Source: Bilabrum cf. latius
Lineage: Eukaryota
Reading direction: 5' to 3'
NCBI GenBank assembly: GCA_965178125.1
Contig: OZ237756.1
Coordinates: 620,001 to 684,000, forward strand
DNA: 64,000 nt
Numbering within the stretch: the first letter of the stretch is position 1; each line of letters opens with the position of its first letter. This document shows positions 32,624 to 64,000 of this stretch, in pieces. A program made the translations under genes and the position numbers. The notes under the pieces were generated by a model. It was not told where the DNA came from, did no database searches, and was given only the letters and a program-made list of their open reading frames with translations.

Positions 32624-32624
32624 A

Positions 32625-40895: not shown

Positions 40896-41363
40896 TCAAT
40901 CCACACGCATCACCACGTATCCATTTTGCTCGCTCGTGCTCCCGTCGTAGCTGTTTAGAAAATGTCCCAGCCCGTCCTCATCTTTACAGGCCTGAATGAG
41001 GTCGTCCCAGCGCCCCTAAGCCACTATAAATGACTTAAGAAGGGCGCTTAAAGCCTCGCTGTGGTTCGCGTCAGCGGTAGCGGTGCTTATGATATCGGCA
41101 TCGCAAGGCAGGAAGCGCGAGAGGAACGCAGGAACGAAGGAAGCAAGCGTCTCTGTAGCGTGGTCGTCCAAACGTTTGTCTGCTTCTTCTTCGGTGATAA
41201 TCTCATAGGTCTGGATTTCCTCGCCTAGCTTCACCGTGGCAGTCTCGCCGTCAAAAGATTGAAGAACCCTGTCCCACTCCTCGCCCACTGCTCCAATGTC
41301 TTCAATACCAGCAATAAGCGCCTTCATTACTTCATCATTAACATCTGTAGAAACCCCGGCCAT
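40896..41363 (-). CDS. Acidic hypothetical protein, 155 aa
   Basis: MAGVSTD...; TAG 41016 read through gives DEDGLGHFLNSYDG; ends TGA. Confidence 0.7.
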
Positions 41364-41675
41364 TGTTTTATGTGTTTTATGTGTGGTCCAGATAAATTTT
41401 GGCGTAGCACAGGTTCCGAAGATGAAGATGAGAAGGTGGTAGACGATAGCCGATTCCAGTGGTAGCAGTGAGAAGTTCCAGCACGAGGAAGTGATGAAAA
41501 TGTAGGGCAGGAGGGTATAAACTGACGGATGGAACCGCAAAGGAAGGAGAATTGGATTGAATAATTGAAGCCAGACCCATAACCCTAGCCTATAGGCTAG
41601 GGATAACCCCCACATAACCCCCCCACCTCTAAGCGTTTTTTTAAAACTCAAAAATTATAACTTAGTATTATAGAT

Positions 41676-42446
41676 ATGAACTTTAATAATTATGTCATTG
41701 AAAATCCCGTCCTAATGAAGCAGATTTATAAGGCTACAGACCATATTACAGATAGTACGCAAAAAATTTTAGAGACCATTACTACGTATGTAGATTTAGG
41801 TGGAAGGTTTTCCACGTCTAAATTAATTAATAAAAATATAGTTAGTGATATTAAAGAGAAAAAAGCCGTCAAAAAACCCAAGAAAGAAGAGAAACAGAAG
41901 ATACAACACGATAATAACGACCAGCTTGAAATTAACCAAACATACATTCTAGATAAATTTAATGACTATAAACCACAGAATAATAAAATTTATAATGATG
42001 TAGATGATTTACAACCGCCAGAATTAATTAGATAGACCGCAATAGATGAAAAATTTACCGGTATGGAGCCTGACAGTGAAAGTGAAATAAACAGCGTTAG
42101 TACCGAACAAGACTAGATAGAAGCAGAAACTGATGATGAAATGATACCTGAGGAAGAGAAAAAAATAATAGGTGATTTAATTAAATTAGAGAATCAGGAT
42201 TATAGGTATAAAGTGTCCGTAAATGGAAATGATGTATTTTTTGGTGAAATTAATTTACCCGATGTAGAGGCTCTTAAGAAATAGTTTAGCCCTCGTAAAT
42301 TACAAATTATGATTTGTAAAATTAAAAGAAATTTTAATATTAATAATAGCGATGATATAAACAGCCCTGAGTTTTGGAATAGCCGTGTATATTTGACCCT
42401 TGATGTGAAGGCCGAACACGAAAAACTACAAGATATCTATAATTAA
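41676..42446 (+). CDS. Hypothetical protein, 256 aa; C-terminus resembles that of 46566-47273
   Basis: VFFG...DINSPEFWNS versus VHFG...DYKSPAFWSR; ends TAA. Confidence 0.65.
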
Positions 42447-42809
42447 AAGCCCCTACAACTTAATAAACGGGCTAGAATTTAATAAAATATTTTAATATAA
42501 CCGCTATATTAAAATCTATACGATGGCTATATCCACAAATTGCGTATAATTATATAGTATTTCTAGCAAAACGTGGATGTAGGGCCTCTTGTGAAGGTGG
42601 TATGGGACCTTTAGATAATTTTTAAAAATAGTTCCATCACTTTAGAAGGTGTTAAAATACACCATTCATATCACAATCTATTTTTTAGGGCTAAATGGCA
42701 AAAATCACCTTTTACCTTCATTAATTATTATAGCCCCTTTAAGCCCTCTATAATTAAATATGGCGTTTAAAATAGTTTAAAAATATATTTCTAATAATAT
42801 ATATAGAAA

Positions 42810-45587
42810 ATGAATAATAAAAACCTCGTTAGTTTCCCCATCAAGCACAATCAAAAAATACCTGATGTTAAAAGCTGGCGATATCTCACCAAACCCGAGC
42901 CTAAACGATTTAATAATCAGAATATGGCTATTATCACCGGAGAAATTAATAATATAACCGTGTTTGATATTGATTCATATAAATGGAGCGATAAGAAGGA
43001 GCATTTATTCATCAAGAAATTTTCAGATGACTTTGTGAAGCGGTTCAACACATTCACGGTTAAAACAGCGGGTGGAGGGTATCATCTATATTTTAAATAT
43101 GATTAGAATATATTAACTACCACCAATAGAGATATTGACGTTGATATTAGGAATGATGGGGCTTATGTAGTGGCACCACCAAGTGGCATAAATGGGTCAA
43201 AATACGAAGTTATTAATAATGTAGAAATAAAAAAATGTCCTAAGGAGCTTTATAAATTTTATGAAAAGTATATTATTAAATCCTCTAAGAAATCCAACGT
43301 AAAAGGGGCGAGTAAAAGGATATCAAAAATTGATAATCAAGATGTGAATAACTGTATGATGAAATTCATTTTAAATGGTAAAGACTGGTCAATTATATTA
43401 AATAGACTAGATAAGAAATATTTAAATAATTATAGTGATTGGTATAAAGCAACCCTAGCGAGTAAATATTTAGGATTTAAGAAGGAATGGTAGGAGTGGA
43501 GCAAGAAGGGCAATAAATACGACTACCACAAAAATAACAAGGTGTGGAACTCTATCCATTATTTTGATAAGTTAAAAACCTTTAATTTAGTTAATTCAAT
43601 AATTTAGAATGATAAAAGTTTAAAGGCATTTGTGAAGGATAAGTATATTTCAAAGTGTTATTATCGTCCTTATGACGAGAATATTAACGGGTATACAGAA
43701 ATTAATAAACCTAAATTAGATGATATAGAGAAGCCCGAACGATTTTTTAAATATGAATATAATTATGTGGTAAAAAGTGATACAGGAACAGGTAAAACAA
43801 CAGCATTTAAGAAATACATTAAACAGGTTCAAACGCCGTTCTTATCCATTGTATCCCGTGTATGTTTAGGCACAGAGCAATACGAGAGCTTTTTAAATGA
43901 AGATATTAAATGTGAGTTCTACCAGAATAAAACTTTTGATTTTGGATAGTCTCTTATTATTACGCCGGAAAGTATCCCCCAAATTGTGAATTATGATTTT
44001 TCTAAATACATCGTATTCTTGGATGAATTCAATAGCATTATAGAGCATATATTAAGTTCTACTACGATGAATAATAATAGGGTTCTTGTATTATTTATTA
44101 TTTTAAAAATGATAAGGACGTGTAAATAGTTTATTGCTGTAGATGCTGACATATCCCAGATAGCGATGAAATTTTTAAAATGTGCTGGAGTAGAATTTAG
44201 CTTCATTAAGAATAAATATAAGCATTTTAAGGACGTAAAAGTATATTTTGAAAAAGACCAATAGAAATTTTACGATAAATTAAAAAGTGAAGATAAATTT
44301 ATACTGGCGTGTGATAGCAAGAAGAACGCAGATACATTTTATAAAATGTTATGTAAAGATGGTATAGAGGACGTTAAATTAATTACTAGTGATTTATTAC
44401 CTGATGAAGATGTGAGCTTAGATAAATATGATAAAATTATATTTAGTCCTAAAGTCATTTACGGATTAGATAGTGTAATGGAACGCCCAGTGTATGGATT
44501 ATATAAAGGAAAAACGATTCTACCGCCGTAGATGATGTAGCAACTGGCAAGATGTAGAAATCCCGAATATATGAATATATATTTTGAAGATGTAAAATCC
44601 ATTTATCCAAGATATGAGAATTTAAAGGAGGTATAGACGACCTTAAATATGGAAATTAACGCATAGACAGATTTATATACTAAATTAGAAAAATACGAAA
44701 AAAGGATAATGTAGGAGAATGATATTGACATTGATATTTTTGAGGGAGAAGATGATGAAGAGATAGCCCATAAAGCAATGATAGAGGCATCATACAAGGT
44801 TTATTTACCACTCAAGAAATTATATAATTTCAAATGTGATACATACGAAACAAATAAATATATTCATTTATAGCTTATTCTTAAAAACAGGGGTGCCGAT
44901 GTATAGGTGGATAAGGAATTACCACAACGAATGAATAAATAGCAGATGAAAGAGGCGACAATGGAGATACTACAAGAAAAGATTGATTCATTTGATGTAG
45001 AGAACGACCATATAAAAAGAAGAATTGAAATTTTAGGGCTACCAGAGACAGCCATAACGGAGGATATTAAAATGTTATTAATTGATAATTACAAATTAAT
45101 GAATTATTTTAATTATGCTAATTTCAAGAGAAAAGATAAATATAAACTAATGACAGAATTAAAGGATAGAAAGGATTTTAAGGATGAGAAAGCAAAAAGT
45201 ACAAAGAATAAAATAATCATATTATAGGAGATGTTATAGACGCTTAAATTGAATAAATTTGATTTAAGTTATACACGTAAAAATGAGAAATCCATTAAAT
45301 ATATAGAAATGGGTAAAAGATATGTAGAAGTAAGCGGGGCGAGATTATAGAAGCCAATAGAAACCGATAGTGAATTACACGGGGCAATCGTAAAATTATA
45401 TAAGTAGTTATTTGGAAATATTAAAACCTCTTGGAGTATGGGAAATAAAAAGGATAAAAAGGATAGAGAATTAAGAATTAAATTCACCAAGGAGAAAGAA
45501 TTATTTGATGAAGTTTATAAATATTAGTATCCCGAAATGAAGGACGTATACAAGGAATCCAACGAACGATTAGATTAGAATATTTAA
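42810..45587 (+). CDS. Prim-Pol primase fused to SF2 (UL9-like) helicase, 925 aa
   Basis: NMAIITG..VFDID, GGYHLYF, VKSDTGTGKTT, VFLDEF, QLARCR; colinear with 242-3040; ends TAA. Confidence 0.9.
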
Positions 45588-45645
45588 TACCTTTTTTATG
45601 TGTTTAAAATAACTTAAACATTATATATTTATATAATATATAGTG

Positions 45646-45948
45646 ATGAGCGATATTTAGAGTTCAAGCAATACATAGGAACAACCAAAAATTAATTATA
45701 TGTAGGAATATTACAAAACAAACAAAGACAAATGGAATAAAAAATATTTAGCTAGAGGAAATGAAAAAGTTAAATGCGATGTGTGTGATTGTTATTATAG
45801 AAGGAAGGACAGAACGAGACACGAACGAACGAAGAAACACCAAAAAAATCTCAAAGAACCAAAAAAGGATATACTAGAGGAATATATCAAGAAACTTAAT
45901 CAAACCCTGCTTAATAGCGGGATTAAACCACCGGAGATATCAATTTAA
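45646..45948 (+). CDS. C2H2-type Zn-finger protein, 100 aa
   Basis: EYYKTNK..KVKCDVCDC...RHERTKKH. Confidence 0.75.
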
Positions 45949-45990
45949 ATCTATCTATTTATTTATTTTTTTTATAAATAAAAAGATTTT

Positions 45991-46512
45991 TCAACCTTTA
46001 ATAACCATCCAATTAGCCGACCAATCATTAGAGGAATTACCACCCGTTAAATGAATCGTAAATCCATCGGTTCCTGCTACTACGTGGGAAAATTCAACCG
46101 GCTCACTGGCGGGGGTGATTGTAGTAATAAAAACCAAATCACTAGAAGTCATACCCGGAACACTAGCAAATTCAGTAGCACCTCCACCACTCCAATTTAC
46201 CCTTCCTTTATGCGCTACGGTGTTATTTGCTACTACTTCACCTTTTACGGTTAAATCACATTCGTGACCGTCTTCATCAAAACTCATAACTAAACCAGCA
46301 GATGCGGTATTGGCACCGAATCGTAAAGCTTGACCCGAAGTGATGTAAGAAATACCCTTACTGTCAAGATGTAATCCTGCGTTGCTAACAACTACATCAC
46401 TACTATTCACAACAGCATTTACATATAGACCACTACTATCTAATCTACCAGTTGCGACATTCTTACATTGAATAGATATATCATTAGGTTGCGATAATCT
46501 TGCTAAGCTCAT
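45991..46512 (-). CDS. Putative fibre/structural protein, 173 aa
   Basis: Homolog of 37876-38367 with a different C-terminal domain. Confidence 0.6.
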   Translation of the reverse strand: MSLARLSQPNDISIQCKNVATGRLDSSGLYVNAVVNSSDVVVSNAGLHLDSKGISYITSGQALRFGANTASAGLVMSFDEDGHECDLTVKGEVVANNTVAHKGRVNWSGGGATEFASVPGMTSSDLVFITTITPASEPVEFSHVVAGTDGFTIHLTGGNSSNDWSANWMVIKG

Positions 46513-46565
46513 TTTTTGTATATATAAATAAGAGAAAAACTAAAACTTATATCAAACCTATAATA

Positions 46566-47273
46566 TTAAACTTTCATTAATTTTTTAGCTCTATCTACGG
46601 CGTCCATAAAGCTATCTTTTAATGTTGGTTCATTCCATAATACAAACCTAGACCAAAAAGCGGGGGATTTATAGTCTTTAAAGTCTTCATTTATTGAATG
46701 TCTTTTAATATAATTTTTCTTTTTACGGTTTGCTTCCTTCTCTCCATCTTTATTATAATATTGTATAAAGTCCATATAAGGAGTACCATCATTCTTAATT
46801 CCACCAAAATGAACAGTAAACAGAATATTATTACCTTGAACTACTTTAATCATATATTTTTTATTTGATTTAGTTGATTTATATAAATTAAAAACTGGTT
46901 TAGGTCTAAATGATTTCACGTGTCCGTTATTAAATTTTTCCTTCATTGCTTCCTCTATTTCTTCCGTGTCTAATTCTCCAAAGGTTAAAGGGGTCTCTTT
47001 ATTTATTCTTTTAGTGGGTCTATATATATCTCCTTTTTCCTAATATCCCTTTTCTCCCTTCTAATTCTTCCAATCCTCTAATTTCCACCTTCTTAAATTT
47101 TTCTATGCTTCATTTAATTTAATTTTATCATATGTCCCCCCTAGTTTTTTATATGATTTAAAGTATGCTAATGAACGATAAGCTGAAGGCTTTTTATACG
47201 TTCTATTTACTTTCTCAACTGCCTGACGCCATAATTTAGGACTATTAATATAACTAGGTATATTATCATTCAT
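46566..47273 (-). CDS. Two-domain hypothetical protein of a type seen in large DNA viruses, 235 aa
   Basis: PSAYRS..YKKLGGTY..LRRW..E.W..YRPTKRI..ETPLT plus KKYM..VHFG..YIKRH..SPAFWSRFVLW. Confidence 0.7.
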
Positions 47274-47281
47274 CTATATAA

Positions 47282-47440
47282 TTAATAAAATGATAATTTT
47301 TTAATAGCGTGAGCCGTTTTCTTTCTATATTCTTCATAGAGTCTTTTATTATTTGGATTCTTCATTAATTTATTTTTTACCTTCTTTAATGCCTTCTTAA
47401 TAGCATACTAAACAAAGATATTACTAATAATATTAATCAT
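47282..47440 (-). CDS. Small basic protein, 52 aa
   Basis: ATG after TATATAAT; open with one TAG; ends TAA. Confidence 0.35.
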
Positions 47441-47467
47441 ATATTATATAATTAATAAATATTTAAT

Positions 47468-48967
47468 TCAAAGCATTAAACCGCCTTTTTTTCCTTTCCT
47501 TGATATAATTTCTTCTTTTTCATTTACGACCATTAAATCATTCTATCCGTGGATAATTAATTTCTATCCTTCTTCATTTATCTATTCTTTTTTATATTCA
47601 CCTAATTCTTTACCTACTTTAAAATTTAATCTTTTGTTAAATGTGATACTGTCGGTGTGAATTCGTATAATATGTTTAGCGTTGTTCTTATTCACTTTCT
47701 TCATCAATCGTTGTCTTCCATATGCCAGAATAAAAGGTTTCAATTTTCCCCAGCTATATTTAAAGGGTACTTTATGTTTTAAATGATAAATAAATTCTCC
47801 GTCATTATCCATTTCTACACGGTCAATATCAAATTTATCTATATTTATTTTTTTATCGTCTTTTGATGTAATTGTCTTTTTAGAGGAACTACATAATTTA
47901 CCCCATAATGAATTTAATATTTCTTTTGCTAGATATGATTTGCTTTTTAATTTGTAGAACATTGAGACATAGGATTTAAAAAGTGTTTCACTTTTGATAA
48001 ATTTATCATAGGTCATAAAATTAAATTCGTCGCTTGACATCTCTATCTCACAACCATATTTAACAAACATATTCATATCTGTAAAGACATAATAAGTAAA
48101 TTCATTTTCAAATACCTTCATCATTTGAAAGATATTCGGGTCGCATTTTCCACGGCTTACCTTACATTTATAAATCCCTATTTCGTTTTTATTATTAATC
48201 TATTTATTATCAATTGTTTTATAAATAGGATTTCCATATGGTAGTAGTGAATTAGATGACATAATGGCGGGGTAATGACTATTTATATCGTAGGTGATAA
48301 ACTCCTCATATTGTCCCTTCTTGTGATATTGAATCCCGCCACGCGTTGAACCTTCAATAAATACCGCTTCCTCTGGGGTTATATCTGGTGGGCTATCTAT
48401 CATCATATTAAACATTGTAAAGAAATGAAGGGCTGTTTGTCTGATTCCATATTTCATTACATCTAATGATGGGTTCTCGTCGTGTAATTCATCACTTGCT
48501 ATACTCAGCCTTAAGCTCCATTCTTTGATATCTTCATCCTCTGGGCATTCGTGAATGGTGTAATGAAGATAATATTTCTTTGAATGATAATCGGTTAGGC
48601 TCTCAACTCTATATTTATCTTTTTCAATTATTTCGGCTTTATCGGTTAATTTAACAACCATAGATTTATGGCACCGCACAAATAAAGGTTTCATCCTCTA
48701 GACGGCTTTAAATGAACCATCTTTATATTCTAAACAAACCCTTTTAAAACTCTTTTTTTTCCTACTTAGATAATAGACCTTTATATCGTCTTTCTCTCTA
48801 ATCTCTATATCCATTTTTAAACCTGAAACAAGTTTATAAAGGTTCTTTGTAGTTATGGGCTTACCGTTAAATACCTTTTCTAGATACTTCACGGATTGAA
48901 TGGGGTTATCATACTTTTTACCAAAGCATATATTTAATTGATTTAACACATTTTCGTAATTTATCAT
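47468..48967 (-). CDS. Short protein-primed PolB, 499 aa
   Basis: TYDINSHYPA, AKEILNSLWG, RIHTDS; three ORFs joined by TAG; ends TGA. Confidence 0.9.
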
Positions 48968-49045
48968 TTCCTATAGTATATTATATTTAATATATTTTTA
49001 AGCCATTTTAAACACATATTATAAAGTTTAAATTATAAAATGTAA

Positions 49046-49387
49046 TTATTGTTTCGGAGCAGTGAGGATTAATATAAATCTCTTCACTTGCTCATCACTT
49101 AAGAAGGTATAGCGAGAAGAAGGACTGAATAACATTACATCATCCTTTAATTTAAATGGTGAACCAGTTCGCCAGCCTATGGGGTAGAGAGAACTAACAT
49201 ACGCATCATAATTTTTTAAATGGGGCTTTTGTTTTAATAACCTCTAGATATATTTTTTTAATAAAGTCTTCATTTCTAAATCATTATATCCATCATCTGG
49301 ACGAGGAGGGAACACGAAATTATATACGGGCTTATTGTTTTTAACAAGTTGAGTTCTAACAATTTGAATATCACTTAATTTAACCAT
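49046..49387 (-). CDS. Stand-alone homolog of the pPolB N-terminal (terminal-protein-like) domain, 113 aa
   Basis: RTQLVKNNKPVYNFVF..GWRT..FILIL matches RTKLRLNGKPIWSMRF..GWRT..FELLL at the N-terminus of element 2 pPolB. Confidence 0.72.
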
Positions 49388-49479
49388 TTTTATATATATA
49401 CTATAGATATTTTATTTTTAAGCCAAATACACGCGTTTAAAATGACTTAAAGATTTTATTTTATTATAATATATATAGA

Positions 49480-50025
49480 ATGTCAAAATTTGAGAGTTAT
49501 GAACCAAGCGAATTAATGGAACTTTTAGAAGAGGGAGCCGTAAAGAAAGCCAAGAAATATATTAATCAATTCTTCTTTAAAACTTTTAAAGGGATATTTT
49601 TTAATAATACCGTAGAAGATAAATTTGAACTAGTGGATGAAGACGAATTAAATGGTTTGTATCTAACCCCTGATATGAAAACCGACAGTGCCAAAAATCC
49701 ATTTGTTCCATACATTTATATGTTTTCTAGTGAGCCCCCGATTTATTATACAGGAAATTTTGAGAGTAAAGACCCCATAATGACAATTAAAAAGAAGGAC
49801 AAACCCATCAAATATATTAATTTGTCATACGGTCAATTTATACCCGAGGAAGTAGAGGAACCAGAAGAAGAAGAAGAACCAATAAGACCCAAGAAAAAGA
49901 CTAAGAAGAGGAACAAGAAGAAACAAAAACGTGATAATAATAGAAATGTTGAGAAACCAGATGATGAAGATGATGATGAAGAAGCCTTTAGAGAGCAACT
50001 TCAAGAAGCATTAAAAGATTTCTAA
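49480..50025 (+). CDS. Homolog of the N-terminal domain of the element 2 helicase, lacking the ATPase domain, 181 aa
   Basis: YEPSELMELLEEG...YINQFFFKT..GIFF versus YSSKSLMDLCNAG...YLKQYFYRT..GVYF; ends TAA. Confidence 0.68.
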   Translation: MSKFESYEPSELMELLEEGAVKKAKKYINQFFFKTFKGIFFNNTVEDKFELVDEDELNGLYLTPDMKTDSAKNPFVPYIYMFSSEPPIYYTGNFESKDPIMTIKKKDKPIKYINLSYGQFIPEEVEEPEEEEEPIRPKKKTKKRNKKKQKRDNNRNVEKPDDEDDDEEAFREQLQEALKDF

Positions 50026-50347
50026 ATAATTTAATATTTATACTAATATTAAATATGATATCTTTATTAATAGTTGAACACCTTGACCATCTAATAAAAG
50101 GGCTAGAATATTAAAATATATATGGTTATCTCTATAATAAAATCCATACGATGGCTATATCCACAAATTGCGTATTAGTATATGTATTATTTAGCAAAAC
50201 GTGGATGGATTAGTTTTATGAAGATGATTTGATTGATAACGTATTTCTAGCCCAAAAGTTCCTTCACTTTAGAAGGTTGTAATATAGCCCCTTCTGACTC
50301 CCATCATCAATATGTTAAATATTAATTTTATCATTAATATCTAATTA

Positions 50348-50899
50348 TTATTTACCAATATGACATTTATAACAAATTGAATATTTCATATCTTTAATTC
50401 TAGACACTCCGCATTTTTTACACGCCTTTTTTCCATATTTTGTAATCGTATAACAAGACTTACAGGTTGTCCTCCAATCACCTCTAGCCATTTTACAAAG
50501 ACACACATCACATCTTTTTTCATTCCTCTTTTTTTCCTCTAACTTTTTCTATTTCTTTTCTAACTCAATATGTCTTATTCCTTCACAGTGCTTATTATAT
50601 CGGTCTCTTGCGACATCCTTTTTACATATTCCACACCACTAATATAAACATTTTTTACGAATTTGATTTTCTTTATCCTTTATCATCTACTTTATACAAC
50701 TAGAACCCACTTTAAAAACATATCCACTAGGGGTATGCTCTATTTCGTGCTCGGTTCGTATCTCGTGCCCACAAATACAATTACCCAATTTATCACCTTG
50801 AATAACGGTTGAGCCAATATGAATTAATTTCTTCTAAATGTCCACCCATTTTATATTACCGGTATGTTCCTATATTTGTTCAATACACTTTTTACACAT
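50348..50899 (-). CDS. Cys-rich multi Zn-finger protein, 183 aa
   Basis: CICGHEI...VGSSCI and several CxxC pairs; open only with TAG=Gln. Confidence 0.7.
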
Positions 50900-50905
50900 T
50901 CTCTA

Positions 50906-51720
50906 TATAATATCTATATAATATAATCTTTAAGTCATTTTAAACGCGTTATATTATAAAAAAGGGGCTTAAAAATAGACACTATAGAAATAGATGATTA
51001 TATTAATTAATATTATTAAAATATTAATTAATTAGACCGGTTAAATAGTTCTTTGGAAAGTATGAACCTACTTTGAAAAGTATGAACCAACTTCGGAAAG
51101 TATGAACCTACTTTGAAAAGTGTGAACCAACTTCGGAAAGTATGAACCTACTTTGGAAAGTATCATTCACAGGTCATATATTTATTTAATATGTATAAAT
51201 AAATAATAAAATGATTATCTAGAGACATCTATTAAATATTTGTTGAAATACGTGCCCACTATTTTATTATACTACTTCAAATGATACAGATACAGCGTCT
51301 TAAATTTATTATTTGTTTGTTTTAGACTGTCAAAACAACCATTTATATAACTTAGATATCTACTGTTTTCATCTGTGTCTTTATCCAAAACACAATCAAG
51401 TAATCCCATAGTTGTTTTCACATTTTTATAAGCGTTTAGATAATTATCATAAAAGTCTAATAGGTCTTCTAGTTCAGTTATATGATAATCTTTAGATTCT
51501 TTCTTAGTGGAGAAAATAGTGCTTTCCGTTTTCTCACGCTTTATAAAAGCCTCAGTCATTTTTTCTTCTTTTTTAAAGGCAATTTTGATTTCTTTTGATA
51601 CGAGTCTATAAAAATTGTTCATTGTATCATAATAATTATCCATTGTGTGTATAATATCTATATAATATAATCTTTAAGTCATTTTAAACGCGTTATATTA
51701 TAAAAAAGGGGCTTAAAAAT
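50906..51720. promoter_or_regulatory. Duplicated 71-bp bidirectional promoter-like block (50906-50976, 51650-51720)
   Basis: Identical copies with AAAATGACTTAAA on the minus strand and GGCTTAAAA on the plus strand. Confidence 0.65.
51215..51643 (-). CDS. Hypothetical protein, 142 aa
   Basis: ORF 51272-51643 extended through TAG to TAA. Confidence 0.6.
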
Positions 51721-51747
51721 TAATTACTATACATATTATATATAAAT

Positions 51748-52554
51748 ATGGACAAATAGAGATTTTCATTGACCTTTGGCGATGCTGGAGAGAATCATAT
51801 AGGTATGGAAATGTTAGGTGAAAGGCTCAAGGAGGGAGAAGGATTTAAAAATGAAGATTTGAAGGGGGTGATGGAGGTATGCGAGGAGAAAGGGTTTAAA
51901 TGTGAAATGATAAATTTAGATGAAGATGTAGATGAAGATTTAGGGGCTAGGGTATTAATAGTAAGGGAATTTTATAAAAAGAAGAAAATTAAAAAAGTCT
52001 TTGACGAGTTGAAGGGGTTAGAGTGGGACAAAAAGTATTTTGATAGAAGGCGGGGGAGGGTGTTAAATAAAAATGCCCGTCATAATTTAGTATTTATGAG
52101 TGATAATGAATAGAAAGAAGATTATGAAAAGGGATAGGGACGAGTATATGATGTGAATAAATTGAAAATGATGAAGGGAGTAAAGAAAAGGGTAGATAAA
52201 TATATAAAAATGGGAATGGATAGGGTAAAAAGTAAATCCAAAAGAGTAGATTACGTTATAGAGGGTAATAATTATTATGATTTGTCCCGCACAATGATAG
52301 GATTTCACGGTGATAGTGAAAGAAGGCGTGTAATATGTCTATCAGTCGGTGGTTATGATGAGCCTATGGCGTGGTGGTGGTTCAAAAATAGCAAGCCGTT
52401 ATGTGAGCCCCGTATTATTAAATTAAATAGTGGAGATTTATATATGATGAGTGAAAAGGCGGTTGGTAGTGATTGGAAGAAGAAGAAAGTGTCCACATTA
52501 AGACACAGTTTTGGGGAAAAAGGCATATAGGCGGGATTAAAAAAATATAAGTGA
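51748..52554 (+). CDS. 2OG-Fe(II) dioxygenase (AlkB-like fold), 268 aa
   Basis: TFGDAGENHIGM, NKNARHNL, EGNNYY, IGFHGDSER (HxD), LNSGDLYMMS, TLRH; ends TGA. Confidence 0.82.
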
Positions 52555-52771
52555 TTATAATAATTAATATTATTAAAATATTAGTTAATTAGACCGGTTA
52601 AATAGTTCTTTGGAAAGTATGAACCTACTTCTGAAAGTATGAACCAACTTTGAAAAGTATGAACCAACTTTGAAAAGTGTGAAACAACTTCGGAAAGTAT
52701 GAACCAACTTCGGAAAGTATCATTTACAGGTCATATATTTATTTAATATGTATAAATAAATAATAAAATGA

Positions 52772-53062
52772 TTATCTTGCCTTATGTAATTGAATAGGTT
52801 TCTTTTCTAATAGACAAACAGCCAAATAATGAAGTACAATGTCATCATCTCTATACTTATTCCTCGTCTATATAATACATTTATAGGTTGAATATTTGAG
52901 ATATAATAGCTTCTCTCTACTGTCCTTTTTTAATTGATTGGTGATTTCTATTACCTAATCACTGTTTGTAAAAATTACGGTCAAAACTCCATCAATTTCT
53001 GTCTGGATATAGACATCGTGTGTAGGCGGTAGATTCTCAATAATTTTATTTAACTTTTCCAT
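52772..53062 (-). CDS. Hypothetical protein, 96 aa
   Basis: AAAATGACTTAAA motif upstream; open with TAG=Gln; ends TAA. Confidence 0.5.
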
Positions 53063-53109
53063 TTGATATATATTAGTTAGTTAATATATATTTAAGTCAT
53101 TTTAAACGT

Positions 53110-54999
53110 TTAAGATGTGCTTAAAAGGGCCTCGAGATCGTCTGTTTTCATTGCCGCACCTCCACGCATCGTAAGTTTTCCGCCAAGTTTATTCAATTCT
53201 CCTCCACTATTTCCATATCCATAATGTGCCGCCGCTTTGCCAATAGCGCTATTGTCTCCTGTTAGACTTTTGAGTGGTCCTATATTCCTAATGGTTTTCG
53301 CTAGGTTTTTAGCCTAATCACTTTTTGCCCAATCTTTAACCTGATTCCATCCGTGTTTAAAGGCTCGTCCAATCTTAGACCAGAAACGACCTTTTCCACC
53401 CATAACATTAGCATAATTATCTAAATCCTCAAATACAGGCTAGAAACCTTTAGAACCACTTTCAGCATCACCACGTTTAGCAAGTTCAGAAAGCACTTTA
53501 GAAGGCTCAATAAGGGCGCCAGCCTCAGTATAGACACCGTTATCATTCACAAGAACATTATCATAAAACATCCATACTTTTACCTCGTATTTATCCTCAT
53601 ACGCACCATCCGCATATTTATTATAAGGGTTGAAGCACTAAAGATTAACTTTAAGATTAAATCCAGTATTTACATTAGATTGAACACCAGCAAGTGTAGC
53701 AACATCTGAAGGTTTTAAAATCATATAGCAACCAGTACCGCGGTTTCCATCACTTCCATCAATTGATGAACCATAAAAGGATGAAGGAGGAAGAGCATAT
53801 CCGTTCTTTCTACTAATTCTATATAATTCGTGTGGATTATCTACAGCCCCTAATTCCTCAGCGCTTCCATTGAGTGAGAAACCTATTCTTCTAATTGGTA
53901 AAGTTCTATTAGCCCAGTTAGGGTTATCATCACAACCAACAAGGCGGGCACATACCATAATAGCACTAGGGATACCATTCTCACGGGATAATTGATAATC
54001 AAAAGAAGTTAAAGAATTTTCAGTTGCGGATTTAGGTACAGGGACAGGCGCCTAAGACTAAAATTTAATTGTAGGCATATTATACATACAACGAGTCGGG
54101 GGGGCGTATCCACTCTAAAATTCAACTTCATCAACAAGAAGGGTCGTATTTGTTTCTCCTATAATTGACTAACCCGTTATTTTATTAATATCTCCGTTAT
54201 CTTTTGTAAAACTAGCCTTACACAGTCTTTGAATAGCATTTACGTGATAATCTAAATCAACTTGAAGGCTTCTTACACCGGTAAAATATTTAGCATTTAC
54301 ATCAACATCTGCTCCTTTTAGTGGTATAGCTTCTTGAAAATCAATAGTCCAATCAATTTGGTCTCTATTACCCGCAACGAAATCAGCATTTACAGTCGTA
54401 AAAGCATTCCCATATGCTCCACGATAACTAAAGCTATCACCGGCACTATATCCAACATCCTAACCCCAAGCTAAAGGATTTTTAAGGGTATCACTTACTT
54501 CACGATAATCACCAACAGTGTCAGGGCGTCCAACGGGTGAGATTGTGGATAAGGTTTCTTCACTGTTCATAACTTCAGTAGGTTCAGCCCATTCATAAAC
54601 TTTTACTGTAAAAGGCTATCCATTAATTGTTAAAACACCACCTTGAAGCATTTTAAAGGTAGGTAATGAATTAGTTCCAAACCTAGATTTAAGATAAGAT
54701 TGAGCGGTAATAGCATCACCTCCCGCAGTTTGAGCTGGTACTGCTTGCTCTAGTTGTAGCCTAACTGTCATACGATGACGAAGACGAATAAACCTTGATA
54801 CGGTTTTACTAGTAGGATTAACGGGGAAAGAAAGGGGAAGAAGAGAATTAGATTGATTAGATGATGGTCTAATTTCTCGGCGGGTATATTTTTGAACACC
54901 TAGTTCTGTTCCTAAACTAGCATCTTCAGGGGTTATCATTTGAAGGCTTTTAGGAGCCTTAATGCTTACTGGTAAATTCTGAACCATTTGTTGAGCCAT
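53110..54999 (-). CDS. Virophage major capsid protein, 629 aa
   Basis: NPHELYRISRKNG aligns with SPQQLWDLSRSNG of element 2; GG-rich basic C-terminal tail; single frame. Confidence 0.87.
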
Positions 55000-55070
55000 T
55001 TTTTTATATATACACTATAGATATAAATTTTTTAATATCTAAACATATTTTATAATCTTCTATAATTTAT

Positions 55071-56024
55071 TTAAAAATCTAAACTTAAATTATCGGTTTG
55101 TTTTTTAAATACTTGTTTAATGTGAGCTTCACCCCCGTTAAAATTCATTACGGGATACTTTTCATTTTGTTTATCAACCCAGTAGAACGCCATTGACACG
55201 CTCTTAAAGCTTCTATCCTTCATCATTGAATACCAGCGGTAAGGATTAGAAACATATAATATATTTTCTATTGGTGAGCTGTCATTAGGATTATACGGGT
55301 AGCTGGTTAATATAGGGGATTTATTGACGGCTATAGAGCCACCAGTAGATGATTTAGTGGTCACCAATTCTTTATTAACTGGAATATCACTTTCTACGAT
55401 AATAGATTTAACAGGGCACCAAGAATTTAAATTCGTCTATCTAGCCATAAAAACATAATCACCACTAGCAGGGGAATTATTATATGAAAGTTTAGCAAAT
55501 AAATCACTCGGTGTGGTTGTTATTCCTTCATATTCAAATTTATCAAATAAAGCAAAAGCTTCAAAATTAACAAATAAATAATAATTATCTCTAAAATCTT
55601 CAGTTGTTGATAAACTCCATTTATTATTTTCAAATTTAAAGACTGGTTTATCACCACTTGGAAGGCTTACCAAATCACAAATTCGGCTTAACTCTTCATT
55701 AAATTCATTTACAATATCCTAATATGAATAATAAAATTTAGCTTTTTTACCTAGAACTATATAATCGCCTGCTCTGGCTCCTGATGTTTTATTCTCAAGA
55801 GTAAATTTTAAATAGGTTTTACCGCTGTCATCCTAATATTCAGGTTTAAACACCGGTAGCATAAATTTATTTAAATCCATCTCTTCAACAGCCGTTAAAT
55901 AATTTTCACTTTGTTTTAATATTAAGCCTTCACGGGTTTCATTCACTACCGCCTATCTCGTCTAATTGTGGGGGACAGATGAACTAACTAAATTCAATCT
56001 TACAAATTCATCGCTATAACTCAT
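55071..56024 (-). CDS. Virophage penton protein, 317 aa
   Basis: NETREGLIL..NYLTAV..MLPVFKP; PYRWYSM..FYWVDK..HIKQVFKK. Confidence 0.85.
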
Positions 56025-56360
56025 TTTATTTATATATTAAAGCTATACAAATAAATATTTATTAATAAACCTTATCTAATATTTCATCTTGATTTTTACC
56101 CTTCACTTTTACCAATATATTTAAAAGTTTGATTGAATTTAGATGGATGAAAAATTGCCCTTCTAAAACGATGGAACTTTTCTAAATAAAAGGGCTTATA
56201 TCTTCATTTCACCTTCACAAGAGGCCCTACATCCACGTTTTGCTAGAAAACACTATAATATATACGCAATTTGTGGATATAGCCATCGTATGGATTTTAT
56301 TTTAGAGATAATCATATTTTATTATTTTATTCTAGCCCTTTTATTAGATGGTCGGAGTAT

Positions 56361-56936
56361 TCAATGTAGAAGCAACGCCACTAACTAATCAGGACTAAGA
56401 GCCATAATTTTGGATATTCTAAACATTTCATTTACAAACTAATCATTTGATAAGAAAGAAAAAGCGTTTCTTAATAGAGCCCATCTTCCACACGTAGCGC
56501 TGTTGTTAGCATAACTCTAAATCGGTTTATGATTATAATCAATTTTCCAACCTTCCATTTTCTAATCAATTAAATACTTTACCAGCGTATTTTCTTCTCC
56601 TTCTCCTTGATACAATTGGTCTCTATTAATAAATGGTTTCTATTGGTCGGGTTTTTCTCCATAGCTATCAAAGAAGTATATTATTTTGCTTGATGGTTTT
56701 CTGGTCAATGAAATGAAATGACCGTATGTGCTATTTAGTCCCGTCTTTTTATTAGGATAATAAATAATTACGCCGTCATAACCATCAAAAATATGTTCAA
56801 TAGATGAGGTCTATTTAATAATATCATCGTAAATAACTATTCTAGGTTTGTAATTCAAATGTGCTACACCTAATTTTTGAATTTCTAAAGGAGATAACGG
56901 TGTTTGGACTAGTCTATTTAAGTCGTTTATGTTCAT
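56361..56936 (-). CDS. Adenain-like maturation cysteine protease, 191 aa
   Basis: YGHF, FFDSYG, YNHKPI(TAG)SYANNSATCGRW. Confidence 0.92.
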
Positions 56937-56944
56937 TTATATAT

Positions 56945-58015
56945 TCAATAGAGAAATATTTTTTTTGTGCTAACTACATAATTATTATCAACATTAATAG
57001 CAACATAACCAAAGAGAGGGAGAGAATGAAGGGTTTTTTTAATTCGTTTTCTAGTAGGAGCGTCAAAACTTAAGACTGTTTCTAAAATATATTTTAAACT
57101 TTTAGCTGTAATTGTTTTATAAATGATATGGGTTGTAATTTCGTTCATAATGGTTCGTGTCTTCATACCGTCGCTTATTTTGTGGGTGATGTCTAAAACG
57201 CTACTTGCTGTGTGCCTTCCTGTAGTTGCTAGGATTTCCAATAAAAAATAAGCCTTTGCTTTCTGGTTCCTTTTTTTAAAGCCTTCGTAATCATCCAGAA
57301 TAAATAAATTAGGTTCAGCGGTCAATTTTTTAAAAAACTCAACATTTAATTTAAAACCTTTTTCTATTAAATCTTTCTCAGGTTTCAAATCCTCTATCTT
57401 TCTTTCAGCTTCAATAACAACATCTAAAGGTTTAGATTTCATCAAAGAAGATTTTTTATATTTAAATTCTAATTTCATTTTTTTATAATAAGCCATTTTT
57501 TCCTTATATAAAGTGTTTTCATTCTCTTTAACCAAATCATCTATATCAATGAAGGTCGCGCCTTCTCTTTTATATTTAGGGTCTTGAATTGGTGATATAA
57601 CATACATATTTTTATATTTTAATCCTCTATACATCCTTATATAATGTAAAGCTAAATGACTTTTCCCGCTTCCACTCTTACCAAATAATCGCACATATTC
57701 ACGCCCCTATGGAAAGAGCATAGGAAAAGGTAAATATTGACTATTATCTTTAATCGCAAATTCCTAAACTGACCGTATATATTCATCTTGTAATAGTTTA
57801 TGTAATTGTTCCCTTTTCTTGTCCTTATCAACGTTATATCTTACTCGGCTTTCTCCGTAATAAGATTTTAAAACATCATCTGTTATCTCTTCCGCTTTGA
57901 CGTGTTGAATATCTTTAGCGTTCGGGTCGTAATAAATAAACCGGTTCTATTGTGTTTTTTTATATTTTTGAATAGCTACAATATGGCTATTTTCCGTATA
58001 TTGTAAAGATAGCAT
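56945..58015 (-). CDS. FtsK/HerA-type genome packaging ATPase, 356 aa
   Basis: GKSGSGKS, FILDDYE, TGRH; N-terminus recovered through TAG. Confidence 0.9.
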
Positions 58016-58107
58016 TATATATAATAATAAAATAAAATAAACCATTTATTCACACGGGTTTAAAATATTAAGTTGGTTCCTTCTTCTATCCTTCCTCACA
58101 AAAAAAG

Positions 58108-58923
58108 TTATAGAGACATAATTATATTTTTAATTTCCGCCCGTGTTTTCCTATTTATGTATTGGTCAATCCACGATATTATCTTATTAATATTTGCTTT
58201 AGAATACTTTGAAAATTGTTTTATTATTTCCACATTTCCTAATGCTTTTCTCATTAGTCCTTTTAGGCTTTGAAATGATTTTGACTTCTCGCTTTGATGT
58301 CCTTTTATTCTTAGCATACTTTCTAATCGCATTCTTATGGAATATAAATATCCTAATGCTTCCCTATCAATTAAATCATTGACTCTTTTTTCATTCCTCT
58401 TCTCACCTCTTAATTTAAATAAATCCTTCAATCGTTTTAATACTTTAAAATTATTAGAACCAAAGTATTTATCTACATCTCTTATTAATCCATCTTTTAC
58501 CTCGTCCTAATCTATTTCATAATCACTTATATGATAAATTATGCTTATTTCATCTATAAATTTTCCATCAAAAGCCCAAAAATCAATTTTTAAGTATGGT
58601 TTATCTCCGCTAAATATCTATTTATAAATGGTTTTAACGGGTGTAGATATGAATGCTTTTATGGTCTTGTATTTTTTATTACCAGCTTTAACCTCAATAA
58701 AATTAACCTAACTTATAAAAACCTTTACAAATCTTATTAAACTATTTATAAATTCAGGCTCTACCCTCTAATATAAATCTATATCACTAGCAAACAAGGA
58801 ATAATAAGGAATAGCATACGAACCATTTAAAAATAAATTAGCCCCCTTCTTAAAATTCACCTCATCAAATATATCGTTCTCGTATTCATTAAAATAAGCT
58901 TGTGTCAATTCATTAATTTTCAT
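58108..58923 (-). CDS. Putative Pol-beta-superfamily nucleotidyltransferase, 271 aa
   Basis: NGSY...FASDIDLY (GS..DxD) and KIDF. Confidence 0.6.
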
Positions 58924-58980
58924 TATATATTATAAGTATGGATAAATAACAAATTATATATACCCAATATATACAATAAT

Positions 58981-59370
58981 ATGAGCGTTAAATAGAGCAT
59001 AAATGATATGACAAATAAAAGCCTTCATCATCTTGGAATAAACAGAAATGATTATAAAAAAGAAATTGATAAAATGGTTGAAGATACCGCAAACCAAATA
59101 TTAAACGCAACCACAAAAGGAAAGACAAAAGGGGGAGCTGTAAACTTTCTTGGTGGATAGCCGAACGTTCTCGCTGGAGGTCCCAATTATCTCGCTGGAG
59201 GAAAAAAGAAGGGTTCAAAGAAAGCCCCTAAAGCTAAAAAGCCCCGTAGTGCTAAATAGTTAAAGAGGGATAAATTAATGAAATGGTGCCGTCAAAAGGG
59301 AATGACTATGAAAGCCAGCAATTCCTTTATAAAGAAACACGACCTTATGAATAAGGATATTTCATTTTAA
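58981..59370 (+). CDS. Small basic core-like protein with repeated GG sites, 129 aa
   Basis: KGG, LGG, AGG, AGG followed by a Lys-rich segment. Confidence 0.65.
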
Positions 59371-59447
59371 AAGACAGCCTACCAATTGACATATTATCTC
59401 TTAAGTTTATAAATTATTAATTATATCATTAATAATATATATATACA

Positions 59448-61526
59448 ATGTCAAACAATACAATTAATGATTTACTGAAGGGTATTATGTAGAAACGGTC
59501 TAATCAACTTAGGATACAAAATGACCCACAAGTTAGATTAATGATATAGCAAGAAGAAGATGAAGCAGAAGCCAGAAGAAAAACCCTAAAAGATGATGCT
59601 TTCCTTCGTGCTAATTATGTTCCTATTGATGTTAGAATTGAAAGACAACAACAACAACAAGGAATTGAAAATATTATTAAAAATATTAAGACTATGAACG
59701 CTAAAAAAGAATTACCAATTTATCAAATAGAAAATTTACAATCATTTATAAATAGAAATCCAGATTTACCGGATAAATTAAAAAGATAGGTTGTAGATAC
59801 CATTAATAATATTAATGTAAGGTAGGTAGTAGGACCAGCAAGCGATAAGAAAAAGGTATTTGATGGAATTAAAAATATTAATATGAGATTATTTACAACC
59901 ACTAAAGCACAACGGGACGCAGTATTAGAACAATTACCAAGCGATATGAGAGGATTAAAAGCAGTTCAAATACGAAACGCTTTACGACAAGCTGGAATCA
60001 CGAAAACCCCCCAAGGATAGAATGTTTCACAATTAACAAAAGTTGATGACGCTGTTAATGCTTTATAGGATGTTTTAAATCCTCCTGAAGCCGTTCAACA
60101 ATAGCAAAGAGATGACCCGCAACCTGATAGACCTGAACCAGATAACCCGCAACCGCCACCAGAACCAAGACCAAAACCCCCTCCAACACCACAAGAAGCA
60201 TTAAGCCCAGAACTACAAGAACAAATTGAAGCACTTGAAAGAGTAGCAAACGCCAATCCTTCAAGTAGTAGAAAAGCACCAAAGAAAACCGAACTAGCAA
60301 AAATACTTAGAGAGTCAAATGTTAAAGGTGTAAAAGGACGGTCTAAAGTTGATTTTATAAAAAGTGCTTAGAAGAAATTATCAGAACTTAAACAAAAAGC
60401 ACAAGAACAAGAGGCATCACAATCATCAGGACAAGAAGAAGAAGGGGAGAACGCCAGTAGAAATTTATCAGGCTAGTTTTCAAAAGTATCACCCGCACCA
60501 GTTCCACCTAGTGGATTCTTACAAGCATCACCAGCACCACAAGGACAATCACCAGAACAAGAACAAGGACAATCACCAGAACAACAACAAAGCACATTTG
60601 GTTCTTTAGGACAATCGGTTATGGATGGTATCAGTTATTTAACAGGAAAAACAGGCTCACAACCACAAGCACCCCCCGCAGGTCAAGACAGAGGAAAAGG
60701 TGAAGCGATGGCAGTAGATGAAGATGGAGAACCTATTACAGATGAATTTGGAAGACAACTTACAGAAGTTCAATTCAGACAAAGACAAGCACAGGCAGAA
60801 CGAGATGAAGCACAAAGACAACAAGAAGAAAAAGAAAGACAAGCTAGAGAACGGAGGGGAGCCCCAGATGAAGTACCAAGAGATGGAGAAGCCGTAGAAC
60901 CAGCACAACAAGCACAACCAGCAGAACCAGCACAAGAACCAGCAGAACCACAAGAACCACAGAAAACAGATGAGGAAATAGCCAAATCAATAGGAAAATC
61001 AATAAATGCTAAAGGCAATAAAAATGAAATATTATCATAGTTAAAAGCAAGAGGAATAAATCCAACAGACGCCAGCCCAACAATTAACACTTTAAAATAT
61101 ATTGTACGAAGGCTTAAAGCCGGAGTCTTACAACCTAATTTATCAACTGATGCTGTTAGGTCCTTAGTAGCTAGAGCAAATACAGAAGGAAGAGCAACCA
61201 GAAGTGATAGAACATTAGCAAAATCAAGACTAAACGATACGGGATATGAATTAAGCGGGAAGCCTCAATGGACATATTCACCACCAGCTCAAGGTTTCGG
61301 AAATAAAGACCCTTATAATATGTTAATGAAAGCTATTAATTTAATTATTGATTAGAAAATAAAAACATAGAACAGGGGCGGTAGTTGTGGATGTGGCAAG
61401 CATAAAGGAGGACAAATTGAACAAGAATATTTTAATATAGCCGGTGGTAAAGGTAATCATAATGTGAAGGACAAGGTAAAACAAATCTTATATCAACACT
61501 TTGAAAAACTAAGATTATTAAAATAA
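59448..61526 (+). CDS. Large Gln/Pro/Glu-rich core-like protein, 692 aa
   Basis: Single frame with only TAG interruptions, including CAA CAA TAG CAA; ends TAA. Confidence 0.75.
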
Positions 61527-61571
61527 TTAGTCTATAGGATAATAATATTTTGTTTTGTATAGATATATATA

Positions 61572-62189
61572 ATGGCAGAGTTAGTAGCAACAGCAAGCAC
61601 GGTTGGTGGGGTGTTGGTTCCTCTAGGATATGCGGGATGCTTCCTTTGGAACTTATGTTCCTCACTTGCGAATCGTAAAAAATTGTGTTTAGTCCTTCCA
61701 CGAAAAGGAGGTAAAAGTTCACTTAACAAAAGTTTAACGTCTATAGACCCGAATATTCTATTAGTTGATTTAGATGAAGTCCTTAAAGTTAATGCTGACA
61801 CCAAACAGGTTTTATACCTAAACGAAGCAGAACGAAGAGGGGACTTATCAACGGCTAAATTATTAAAATTTGAACTTATGAAAAAAAGTATTGAGTCTGT
61901 AAAGAAAAATTGGTTATAGAAAGCAGAACATAGAGCAGTCTTTTTAACAAGTGATTTTGAACTAGCACAAGAAATATTCAAAAAATCCAGCATATGCGTA
62001 GCTATACCCAGCGATAAACTGTATAGCAAAATCCATAAAGATTTAGATAATGAAGATAAGGATGTAGCAAGACATTCACGAGCTGAATTTTTGAAAAGTT
62101 TTAACCCTAATGAGTATAGCGTGTATAATACGTTTGAAGGGCTTTCATAGATGGTTATGTCAGTCTATAATATGACCTACAGAGTGTAA
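61572..62189 (+). CDS. P-loop (kinase-like) protein, 205 aa
   Basis: LVLPRKGGKSSL..LVDLDE; homolog of 34165-34782. Confidence 0.75.
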
Positions 62190-62225
62190 TTATTTGAATA
62201 TTATTAAAATATAAATTAATAATAT

Positions 62226-63383
62226 TTATTTAGTCTTATTATTAAAATTATCCTTTAGAGTTTTTGATATATTTTTAGCCGGCTCCGTTGTTATCTTCCA
62301 TTGAATTAAATATTCATCTTGTCCCTCTTGATTCTTTCTTCTCTTTATTATTTTACCTATATCATTCTAATATTTTCTTTTAGTAGCCTCATCAACATAT
62401 GAATCTTTCCATTTAACCCTGTATGTATTATTTTTATTCTTTCTTATCAATTTTTCAATTATAAATATATCTTGTGCTTTATTCTCGTATGGTTTAGATG
62501 CTAATAACAACTAATCTCTATTAAAGTATGTATAGGGTATGCCCTCAATTTTATATAATGGGGGGTTATCTGGTTTTATTATTACTCTTTCAATTTTATA
62601 AGGCTTTACGCTATATTTAATATCTCCCGCCCTAAATGCTCCGGTCTCCTTTATCCCTTCTATACTTCTAGGATAATCTAATCCTATTCTTACCATTTCA
62701 CCCTCATTTAATACATCACATACTTCACCCTAACATCTAGGCGGTATATATGGTAGATTCTCCCTTTTCTTATTCAACATTTCCTATCTTGTTTTATAAC
62801 GCTCGTTTAATATCTCCCTCAACTTTGGTATTAAATGTCTCCAGTTCGTAATAGTTGTCCCCGTTCTTATCTCCTATGAATTCAAATAATAAAATATAGC
62901 TCTCCCTATTTCCTCATTCAATCTCTCCACCAAAGCCATCTACGATTTACGCTTCACTCTTGAAAATATATGCTCTATCTTATTCTTCTTTAGATATTCT
63001 TTAAATAATTCATTATCAAATTCTCCCCCTTTATCTGTTCGTATCATTTTAGGTTTCATTAAATAATTTCTTTTATAGATTTTTTGAAAAGCTTTTATCA
63101 CATCCTCCGCCCCTCTATCCTTTAACTCTTCAAAATCTAACGCTAACCCGCTCGTATCTATCACAACTAATAAATATTTTGAATCGTTCTTGGTAGCGTA
63201 AGGGAGATACAATAAATCAGCCTATTGGATAAGCCCCTCTTTAGTAGGTTTATAATATTTAACATAATTCAATCCTTTCGGTTTCTTTATCGGCTTCATT
63301 AAATCGTTCGTGATAGACTTCGTATTAAATCCAAAACTTGACTCATTAATATCATTATCTTTTTTCTTTCCTCTCTTACTCAT
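62226..63383 (-). CDS. rve integrase with chromodomain-like C-terminus, 385 aa
   Basis: IQ(TAG)ADLL, RTDKGGEF, (TAG)MALVERLN; YRVKWKD and YLIQWK. Confidence 0.92.
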
Positions 63384-63423
63384 TATATATATTAATTGAT
63401 TTTAATATTTATAAATTAATTAT

Positions 63424-63795
63424 TCACGGATTAAATAATTTATTAATAGCTTCATTCGTTTTAATGTGCTCCTTGGTGTCTCTTATCTCCTAATGGATAT
63501 CAACCAACTTTAATTTTTCTTTCTTAGTGAGTCCGTTCATCCTTCCCTTCAATTCTTTTAAAGTTTTCATATAAGGGGCTATAGCTTCTGCTTTCTTTTT
63601 GCTCACCTCTTTATATTCCACATTAAGAGCGGTTAATTTACTATTCACTTTATTTTTTAATTCTGTCTCTTTTATTTTTAGTTGCTTTAACTTTTGTTCT
63701 AATTCACGATTGGTCTTCTTAAAGTCTTCTACAATATCAAGAAATTCATTCTTTAACTTTGAGCGGGTATTAATCACTTTTTGTAATTTATCCAT
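63424..63795 (-). CDS. Coiled-coil protein, 123 aa
   Basis: Heptad-rich ORF extended through one TAG to TGA. Confidence 0.6.
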
Positions 63796-64000
63796 TTATA
63801 TATAATTACTAGATATTTTTTTTATTTTTTTTAAACTTCATTTTAACTCTTTGTAATTCTCGTGCTATTTCTAATTCCATCAATCCCCTTATTATTCTGC
63901 CATCGTGATAATCCTAAGATGAACAATGAATCAAATCATTCTAAACTGCCGGTAAAGGTATTCTATACATCAATTCATATTTAATAATCTCAAGCGTTAT

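Follow-up and report, generated by a model that had tools for sequence, protein, structure and literature searches.

In-frame TAG at the conserved glutamine of an endogenous virophage-type protease, in eukaryotic DNA where UAG is very likely read as glutamine

The protease gene and its conserved glutamine

The window analysed here is a stretch of 64,000 nucleotides from Bilabrum cf. latius (assembly GCA_965178125.1, contig OZ237756.1, positions 620,001 to 684,000 of the forward strand), and coordinates below are those of the window. It is a mosaic, in which a host gene island (60-65% GC, ~6-26 kb) is flanked by three virophage-like elements that are richer in AT and recoded at TAG, referred to as A, B and C. 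The subject of this study is a virophage-type maturation cysteine protease gene on the minus strand of element C (Table 1). Its open reading frame (ORF) runs from an ATG at 56934-56936 to a terminating TGA at 56361-56363, and the six stop-like codons within it are every one TAG. One of these, read as CTA on the plus strand at 56517-56519, is codon 140 of 191. A sequence-only reading of the window had reported a TAG there, at the oxyanion-hole Gln of an adenain/Ulp1-clan viral protease; the codon is present, and the peptide quoted with it, YNHKPI*SYANNSATCGRW, is reproduced exactly by minus-strand translation in that frame. Under the standard code the protease stops at codon 42 and never reaches its catalytic Cys, and the element would therefore be expressible only in a cell in which UAG is Gln.

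HMMER, run exhaustively against 1.84 billion representatives, returned 1174 relatives of the protease at E ≤ 1e-3 and 141 at E ≤ 1e-10, mostly of 170-190 amino acids. The nearest full-length relatives among the matches listed are 40-45% identical to it, and its C-terminus is level with that of the homologue P0003. The query, with X at each TAG, was aligned with MAFFT to the best 150 of the 1174 homologues, which are the sample for the protease column counts given here. In the column of residue 140, Q is found in 144 homologues, K, R or E in a single homologue each, and a gap in the three others, which are fragments, so that Gln makes up 144 of the 147 residues present. The order along the protein is His73, Asp90, Gln140 and Cys149, and the alignment puts the conserved Gln at this TAG rather than elsewhere. 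A narrower alignment (A1) comprised the query and 101 of the 150 homologues, leaving out 18 fragments or over-long sequences among P0003-P0121, together with P0001, P0002 and P0122-P0150. In A1 the column of Gln140 alone among Gln columns reaches 90% conservation; with one such column, six TAGs and 191 codons, the chance of the coincidence under random placement is ~3%.

The public proteins P0001 and P0002 are 73% and 71% identical to the N-terminus of the protease (56643-56936) and end exactly before the TAG of residue 99. These ends seem to be the product expected of a standard-code gene caller on a recoded relative, and related recoded elements would seem, from these sequences, to exist in public data. 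A search of genome contigs with the single protease protein gave 101 pattern matches, none of which was confirmed by tblastn.

In an AlphaFold2 model built on A1 (predicted local distance difference test score, pLDDT, 95.5; predicted template modelling score, pTM, 0.91), a loop at residues 135-148 carries Gln140 and is followed by a helix, residues 149-158, opened by Cys149. A Foldseek search of the PDB gave 47 matches (E ≤ 1e-3; template modelling (TM) scores 0.35-0.52), which by description are Ulp1/SENP/Den1, adenain, the poxvirus I7L/core protease and pS273R of African swine fever virus (ASFV), as well as bacterial CE-type deubiquitinases (OtDUB, SseL, NopD) and RavZ. The best named predicted viral structure (BFVD) was Sputnik V9 (B4YNE9; TMq 0.80, TMt 0.87, E 3.8e-12, root-mean-square deviation 2.3), followed by adintovirus adenains and giant-virus Ulp1-like proteins. 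Profile alignment to adenain pairs His73 with His54, Asp90 with Glu71 and Cys149 with Cys122. The membership in the adenain/Ulp1 clan proposed from the sequence agrees with these matches to clan CE enzymes and to Sputnik V9; we class the protease as a clan CE cysteine protease of the Sputnik V9 type, its catalytic residues being His73, Asp90 and Cys149. Sequence-level searches weigh against this assignment. The query matched no Pfam family at E ≤ 0.01 or at E ≤ 0.1, and 102 members of its family gave weak matches only, to Peptidase_C5 (6 members, best E 0.0019), C57 (5, best E 0.00027) and C48 (4, best E 4.1e-05). The A1 profile against PDB sequences was marginal (E 0.009-0.2), the matches being almost all CE enzymes, and a single-sequence PDB search with the protease gave chance matches only.

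Gln140 is probably the residue of the oxyanion hole, because it is the sole conserved Gln of the family, the clan order of His, Asp/Glu, Gln and Cys is retained, and in the model it lies in the loop directly ahead of the catalytic-Cys helix. There it would stabilise the tetrahedral intermediate beside Cys149. The alternative is that Gln140 is conserved for structure or substrate binding, while the oxyanion hole is made by a different side chain or by a backbone amide. The separation of Gln and Cys favours this alternative, being 8 residues in 124 of the 144 homologues (6, 7 or 9 in the rest); it exceeds the 5-6 residues of Ulp1 and adenain and weighs against Gln140 as the oxyanion residue. Likewise, HMMER pairs the family Gln, with one inserted residue, to adenain Gln112, three residues from Gln115, which we take to be the oxyanion residue of adenain, and K, R or E is tolerated in the three homologues without Gln at this column. 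Set against the sole conserved Gln, its loop and the retained clan order, we consider the alternative unlikely and favour an oxyanion role for Gln140.

What TAG means in viral and host genes

Element C, whose ORFs were called with TAG as sense, contains 21 ORFs of 6384 codons in all, with 97 TAG, 158 CAA and 17 CAG; 15 of the ORFs stop at TAA and 6 at TGA. As a control, ORF coverage was calculated for each region under four readings. For element C it was 0.29 under the standard code, 0.86 with TAG as sense, 0.50 with TAA as sense and 0.31 with TGA as sense; the same four values were 0.23, 0.92, 0.39 and 0.31 for element B, and 0.09, 0.56, 0.31 and 0.09 for element A. In 31 ORFs there are 177 TAGs, evenly distributed along the length of the genes; 18 of these ORFs end in TAA and 13 in TGA. 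TAG was not enriched before stops, as relics of former TAG stops would be: 3 of the 31 ORFs had one within 5 codons, against ~2.6 expected.

Host DNA in the window also carries TAG as sense. An OGFOD1/Tpa1-like ORF in the host island has a Pfam 2OG-FeII_Oxy_4 domain at residues 114-215 (E 2.4e-30) that contains the TAG of residue 121, and its 2OG-Fe(II) and Ofd1_CTDD domains are joined only if TAG is read through. The protein aligns to 120 homologues without gaps at the TAG residues 35, 53 and 121, and these TAGs are therefore not in introns. A single TAG is present in each of two other host ORFs, so that the six host ORFs examined, all of which stop at TGA, hold 8 TAGs in total. The closest named OGFOD1 relative, from Cafeteria roenbergensis, is 48% identical. 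From these sequences the recoding appears to be a property of the host that is common to the elements, with one host gene as the main evidence. Two results count against the wider reading of UAG as Gln: the columns at the three OGFOD1 TAGs are variable (P, K/R, Y), uninformative on the residue and indicative of TAG as sense only, and tRNA and Rfam scans of the 64-kb window found no tRNA gene and no Rfam family.

Recoding could instead be confined to the viruses, as it is for TAG-recoded phages whose bacteria keep the standard code, through a suppressor tRNA carried by the virus or by a giant virus, with the host on the standard code. The elements do use TAG much more often (97 of 6384 codons in C) than the six host ORFs do, and the last TAG of the OGFOD1-like ORF, at 12648, lies 14 codons ahead of its TGA, so that this ORF could stop there. 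Such a restriction is nevertheless very unlikely, given the TAG that sits within the 2OG domain in a gap-free alignment, the read-through needed to connect the two domains, the uniform TGA stops of the host ORFs and the lack of a tRNA gene in any of the three elements; the lower use of TAG in the host is consistent with its GC content. Recoding by the host thus remains the preferred explanation.

Which amino acid TAG encodes could be read from homologue columns. For the primase-helicase of element C, 120 of the 286 matches were used, and it was aligned also to the element-A paralogue; for the major capsid protein (MCP) of element B, six of the seven matches were used, the identical P0151 being left out. 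Four viral proteins contributed 49 TAG sites, over which the summed log-odds were +33.2 bits for Gln, -10.2 for Lys, -23.2 for Asn and -30.2 for Glu. The ranking of residues at TAG matches that at CAA in the same genes, and control codons recovered their own amino acid in 11 of 11 cases. Residue 577 of the primase-helicase of C and residue 580 of that of A, both TAG, are Gln in 120/120 homologues, and residue 355 of the latter, also TAG, is Gln in 114/120. Seven query positions of the protease and the two primase-helicases fall in columns with at least 80% Gln, four of them TAG and three CAA, while TAG accounts for 34 of the 1784 aligned codons in these proteins. The public protein P0151 (source ENA) corresponds to residues 1-478 of the element-B MCP and has Q at all 13 TAG sites covered; some public prediction has therefore already taken TAG as Gln here. 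The equation of TAG with Gln, drawn at first from a single codon, which alone would not fix the code, is thus independently borne out over the 49 sites.

That TAG is a sense codon for another amino acid (for instance Glu, Lys, Leu or Tyr), as with other UAG/UAR reassignments, is highly improbable, even if several columns speak for it. Glu is commoner than Gln at three variable TAG columns of the protease, residues 99 (E49/Q30), 166 (E58/Q40) and 184 (E62/D19/Q10); at residue 125 the column reads S63/A26, and residue 42 is an insertion. The primase-helicase of C taken alone slightly prefers Lys (8.9 against 7.2 for Gln), Gln is the top residue at 14 and Lys at 12 of 52 TAG sites, and single TAGs stand in columns where Arg (101/120), Leu/Ile (119/120), Lys (89/120) or Asp (79/119) predominates. 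UAG is moreover Leu in a rhizarian, according to the portion of PMC5304391 that was available. Against all this stand the summed log-odds, the Gln columns of the primase-helicases and of protease residue 140, and the codon usage of element C, where scarce CAG and frequent TAG fit TAG in the place of CAG. The non-Gln columns are variable or lineage-specific, and the invariant Gln columns are not outweighed by them.

A comparison of the paralogues within the window (A/C and B/C) for the partner residue of TAG was set aside, its distribution being flat at ~30% identity (E 9, N 9, Q 7, K 6 and so on).

That the TAGs are genuine stops, the elements decayed pseudogenes and the protease a string of fragments has next to no probability: decay is common in endogenous viral elements, and the standard code breaks the protease ORF in six places, but the frames are interrupted by TAG alone, reading TAA or TGA as sense leaves the ORF map unclosed, the 177 TAGs sit in ORFs that are otherwise intact, and TAG falls on invariant Gln columns in the elements and in frame in the host gene as well.

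TAG is Gln in these genes, and TAA and TGA terminate. These are the assignments of NCBI table 15. It is nearly certain that TAG encodes Gln at the conserved Gln position of this virophage protease of clan CE, and the statement as a whole, that the host has a nuclear code with UAG as Gln, that the integrated virophages are written in the same code and that the oxyanion Gln140 of the protease is spelled TAG, is very likely correct. The window would then belong to the nuclear genome of a microbial eukaryote rich in GC, in whose cytoplasm UAG is translated as glutamine while UAA and UGA still terminate, with three AT-richer virophage-like elements integrated around a host gene island and sharing its code. 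Decoding would involve a tRNA-Gln(CUA) and an altered eRF1 encoded elsewhere in the host genome. By analogy with the annotations of other virophage proteases, the enzyme may trim capsid proteins during virion maturation.

The integrated elements and the host island

Table 1. Positions of the protease, its key codons and the other features of the window
Feature	Coordinates	Strand	Description
Virophage-type maturation cysteine protease gene	56361..56936	-	191 sense codons, ATG start, TGA stop, six in-frame TAG
His73 (CAT)	56718..56720	-	catalytic His, GHF motif; column H in 149/150, invariant in alignment A1
Asp90 (GAT)	56667..56669	-	catalytic acid, FFDSYG motif; column D in 145/150
TAG codon, residue 140	56517..56519	-	near-invariant Gln column of the homologues; probable oxyanion-hole Gln
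Cys149 (TGT)	56490..56492	-	nucleophile, starts helix 149-158 in the model; TCGRW motif; column C in 146/150
Five other protease TAGs	56385..56813 (span)	-	56811-13, 56640-42, 56562-64, 56439-41, 56385-87 = residues 42, 99, 125, 166, 184
Presumed packaging ATPase gene	56945..58045	-	366 amino acids, GKSGSGKS P-loop; assigned by motif and gene position; no Pfam match
Penton (minor capsid) gene	55071..56024	-	Pfam V18-19 (Sputnik minor capsid), E 5.3e-07, 29.2 bits, cut-off 27
Element C MCP gene	53110..54999	-	Pfam MCP_V20_C weak, E 0.0036, 17.2 bits, under cut-off 27
Element A	up to ~5 kb		primase-helicase only (ORF 242-3040)
Element B, virophage-like, TAG-recoded	27600..41650 (approximate bounds)		~39% GC
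Element C, virophage-like, integrated	41676..64000 (runs past window end)		~30% GC
Host OGFOD1/Tpa1-like gene	9834..12695	+	six in-frame TAG, residues 3, 35, 53, 121, 289, 939

Element C carries a primase-helicase, a pPolB-like gene, an integrase with rve and chromo domains, and a morphogenesis module in the order ATPase, protease, penton and MCP, all on the minus strand. The stop of the presumed ATPase ORF lies 8 nt ahead of the protease ATG, and the MCP aligns to that of element B with a score of 169. The penton start is separated from the protease stop by an unusually long gap of 337 nt, filled by the third copy of an intergenic repeat that occurs at 42480-42604, 50074-50207 and 56205-56364, with stretches of 45-88 nt matched at 81-96%; this copy has the opposite orientation to the others. 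The repeat could be a shared promoter, a terminator or a small mobile insert. On the plus strand, an ORF of 692 amino acids at 59448-61526, with a Q/P/E-rich low-complexity middle and locally richer in GC, has 63 CAA and 12 TAG codons and matches no Pfam family, and the gene at 51748-52554 bears a weak resemblance to 2OG-Fe(II) oxygenases (E 7e-4, under the cut-off). A DUF5872 protein (E 4.9e-21) is encoded at 46566-47273 on the minus strand.

Element B contains genes for an integrase, a D5-like helicase, pPolB, a Sputnik-type MCP (Pfam Sputnik_MCP_1st, 8e-25; MCP_V20_C, 1.6e-27) and a penton; no protease ORF was identified in it. Elements B and C adjoin and share genes at ~30% protein identity, with GC contents of 39% and 30%. 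Their junction is undefined, the region 39430-41650, which separates their outermost clear genes, being GC-richer (41-46%), with doubtful ORFs with TTG or GTG starts only, and no Pfam match. The primase-helicase ORF of element A is bracketed by imperfect inverted repeats of 58 nt (117-174 and 4700-4757, 71% complementary), possibly the termini of an element that has been truncated. Within 64 kb there are three elements, which may represent at least two lineages (30% and 39% GC); TAG makes up about one third of their Gln codons, and the glutamines spelled TAG would include catalytic and helicase-motif ones. The presence of three elements in one window, with the differing GC contents and low protein identity of the adjoining B and C, points to several separate insertions beside a single island of host genes.

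The genes of the host island encode a thymidine kinase, an Arm-repeat protein, a RING protein, a kinase, a UBC-type protein and the OGFOD1-like protein. Two tandem arrays lie in the host DNA. One, at 20450-24100, has ~33 copies of a 115-bp unit, most of them 86-98% identical to the reference copy; the other, at 24406-25224, has ~15 copies of a 39-bp unit, one frame of which translates as a PRALLAPAAESAP-type repeat.

Implications and known systems

The protease TAG taken alone is a neat diagnostic and no surprise; its genomic context is of more interest. A near-invariant active-site Gln spelled TAG provides a compact, checkable proof of the meaning of UAG in the host organism, and indicates that integrated virophages track the genetic code of their host. 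Standard-code gene callers fragment such virophage genes, so that surveys would miss the elements or mis-size them. A lineage with many viral passengers would let one ask how viruses follow a change of code or are shut out by it. Our results tentatively raise the possibility of an undescribed case, namely a GC-rich free-living eukaryote in which UAG, read as Gln, is decoupled from UAA and the whole resident population of endogenous virophages has been rewritten, with the helper giant virus bound to the same code and the code acting as a barrier to host range in the triangle of host, giant virus and virophage.

The maturation cysteine protease (PRO) is one of the four hallmark virophage genes, and the morphogenesis gene set of element C is as described for virophages, in both respects following the accessible sections of PMC9952930. 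The protease studied here resembles virophage PRO of the Sputnik V9 type in its fold, its length of ~180-190 amino acids and its ATPase, penton and MCP neighbours; it differs in that six codons, including that of the conserved Gln, are TAG, and in that it matches no Pfam protease model. With the clan CE enzymes (adenain C5, Ulp1/SENP C48, poxvirus I7L C57, ASFV pS273R) it shares the fold and the order of His, Asp/Glu, Gln and Cys, whereas TM-scores to them are only 0.4-0.5, the Gln-Cys spacing is 8 instead of 5-6, and Pfam models do not detect it.

UAG-only reassignment is rare in eukaryotes, and in Iotanema spirale UAG is Gln while UAA is kept as a stop, UAG being decoupled from UAA, as stated in the available part of PMC5304391; further UAG reassignments are reported for phyllopharyngean ciliates in the excerpted text of PMC11687900. 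The code of the window is of the Iotanema spirale type in that TAG is Gln and TAA and TGA terminate, and differs from the known lineages with UAG as Gln in the GC-rich host (60-65%). The bacteriophages recoded at TAG (code 15), so far as the partial sources on them go, likewise have viral genes full of in-frame TAG read as Gln; there the phage departs from the code of its host, whereas here a host gene, too, uses TAG as sense.

The endogenous mavirus-like elements (EMALEs) of Cafeteria burkhardae are comparable in that several low-GC virophage elements with rve integrases reside in a GC-rich flagellate genome (PMC8547959, in its accessible portion). The elements described here differ in being written in a code with UAG as Gln, the term 'genetic code' being absent from that portion of PMC8547959. 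In a literature search that did not cover subscription journals, no paper was found that connects a variant nuclear code with virophages or polinton-like elements. Both the code variant and the protease family are known, and their combination in endogenous virophages appears to be new.

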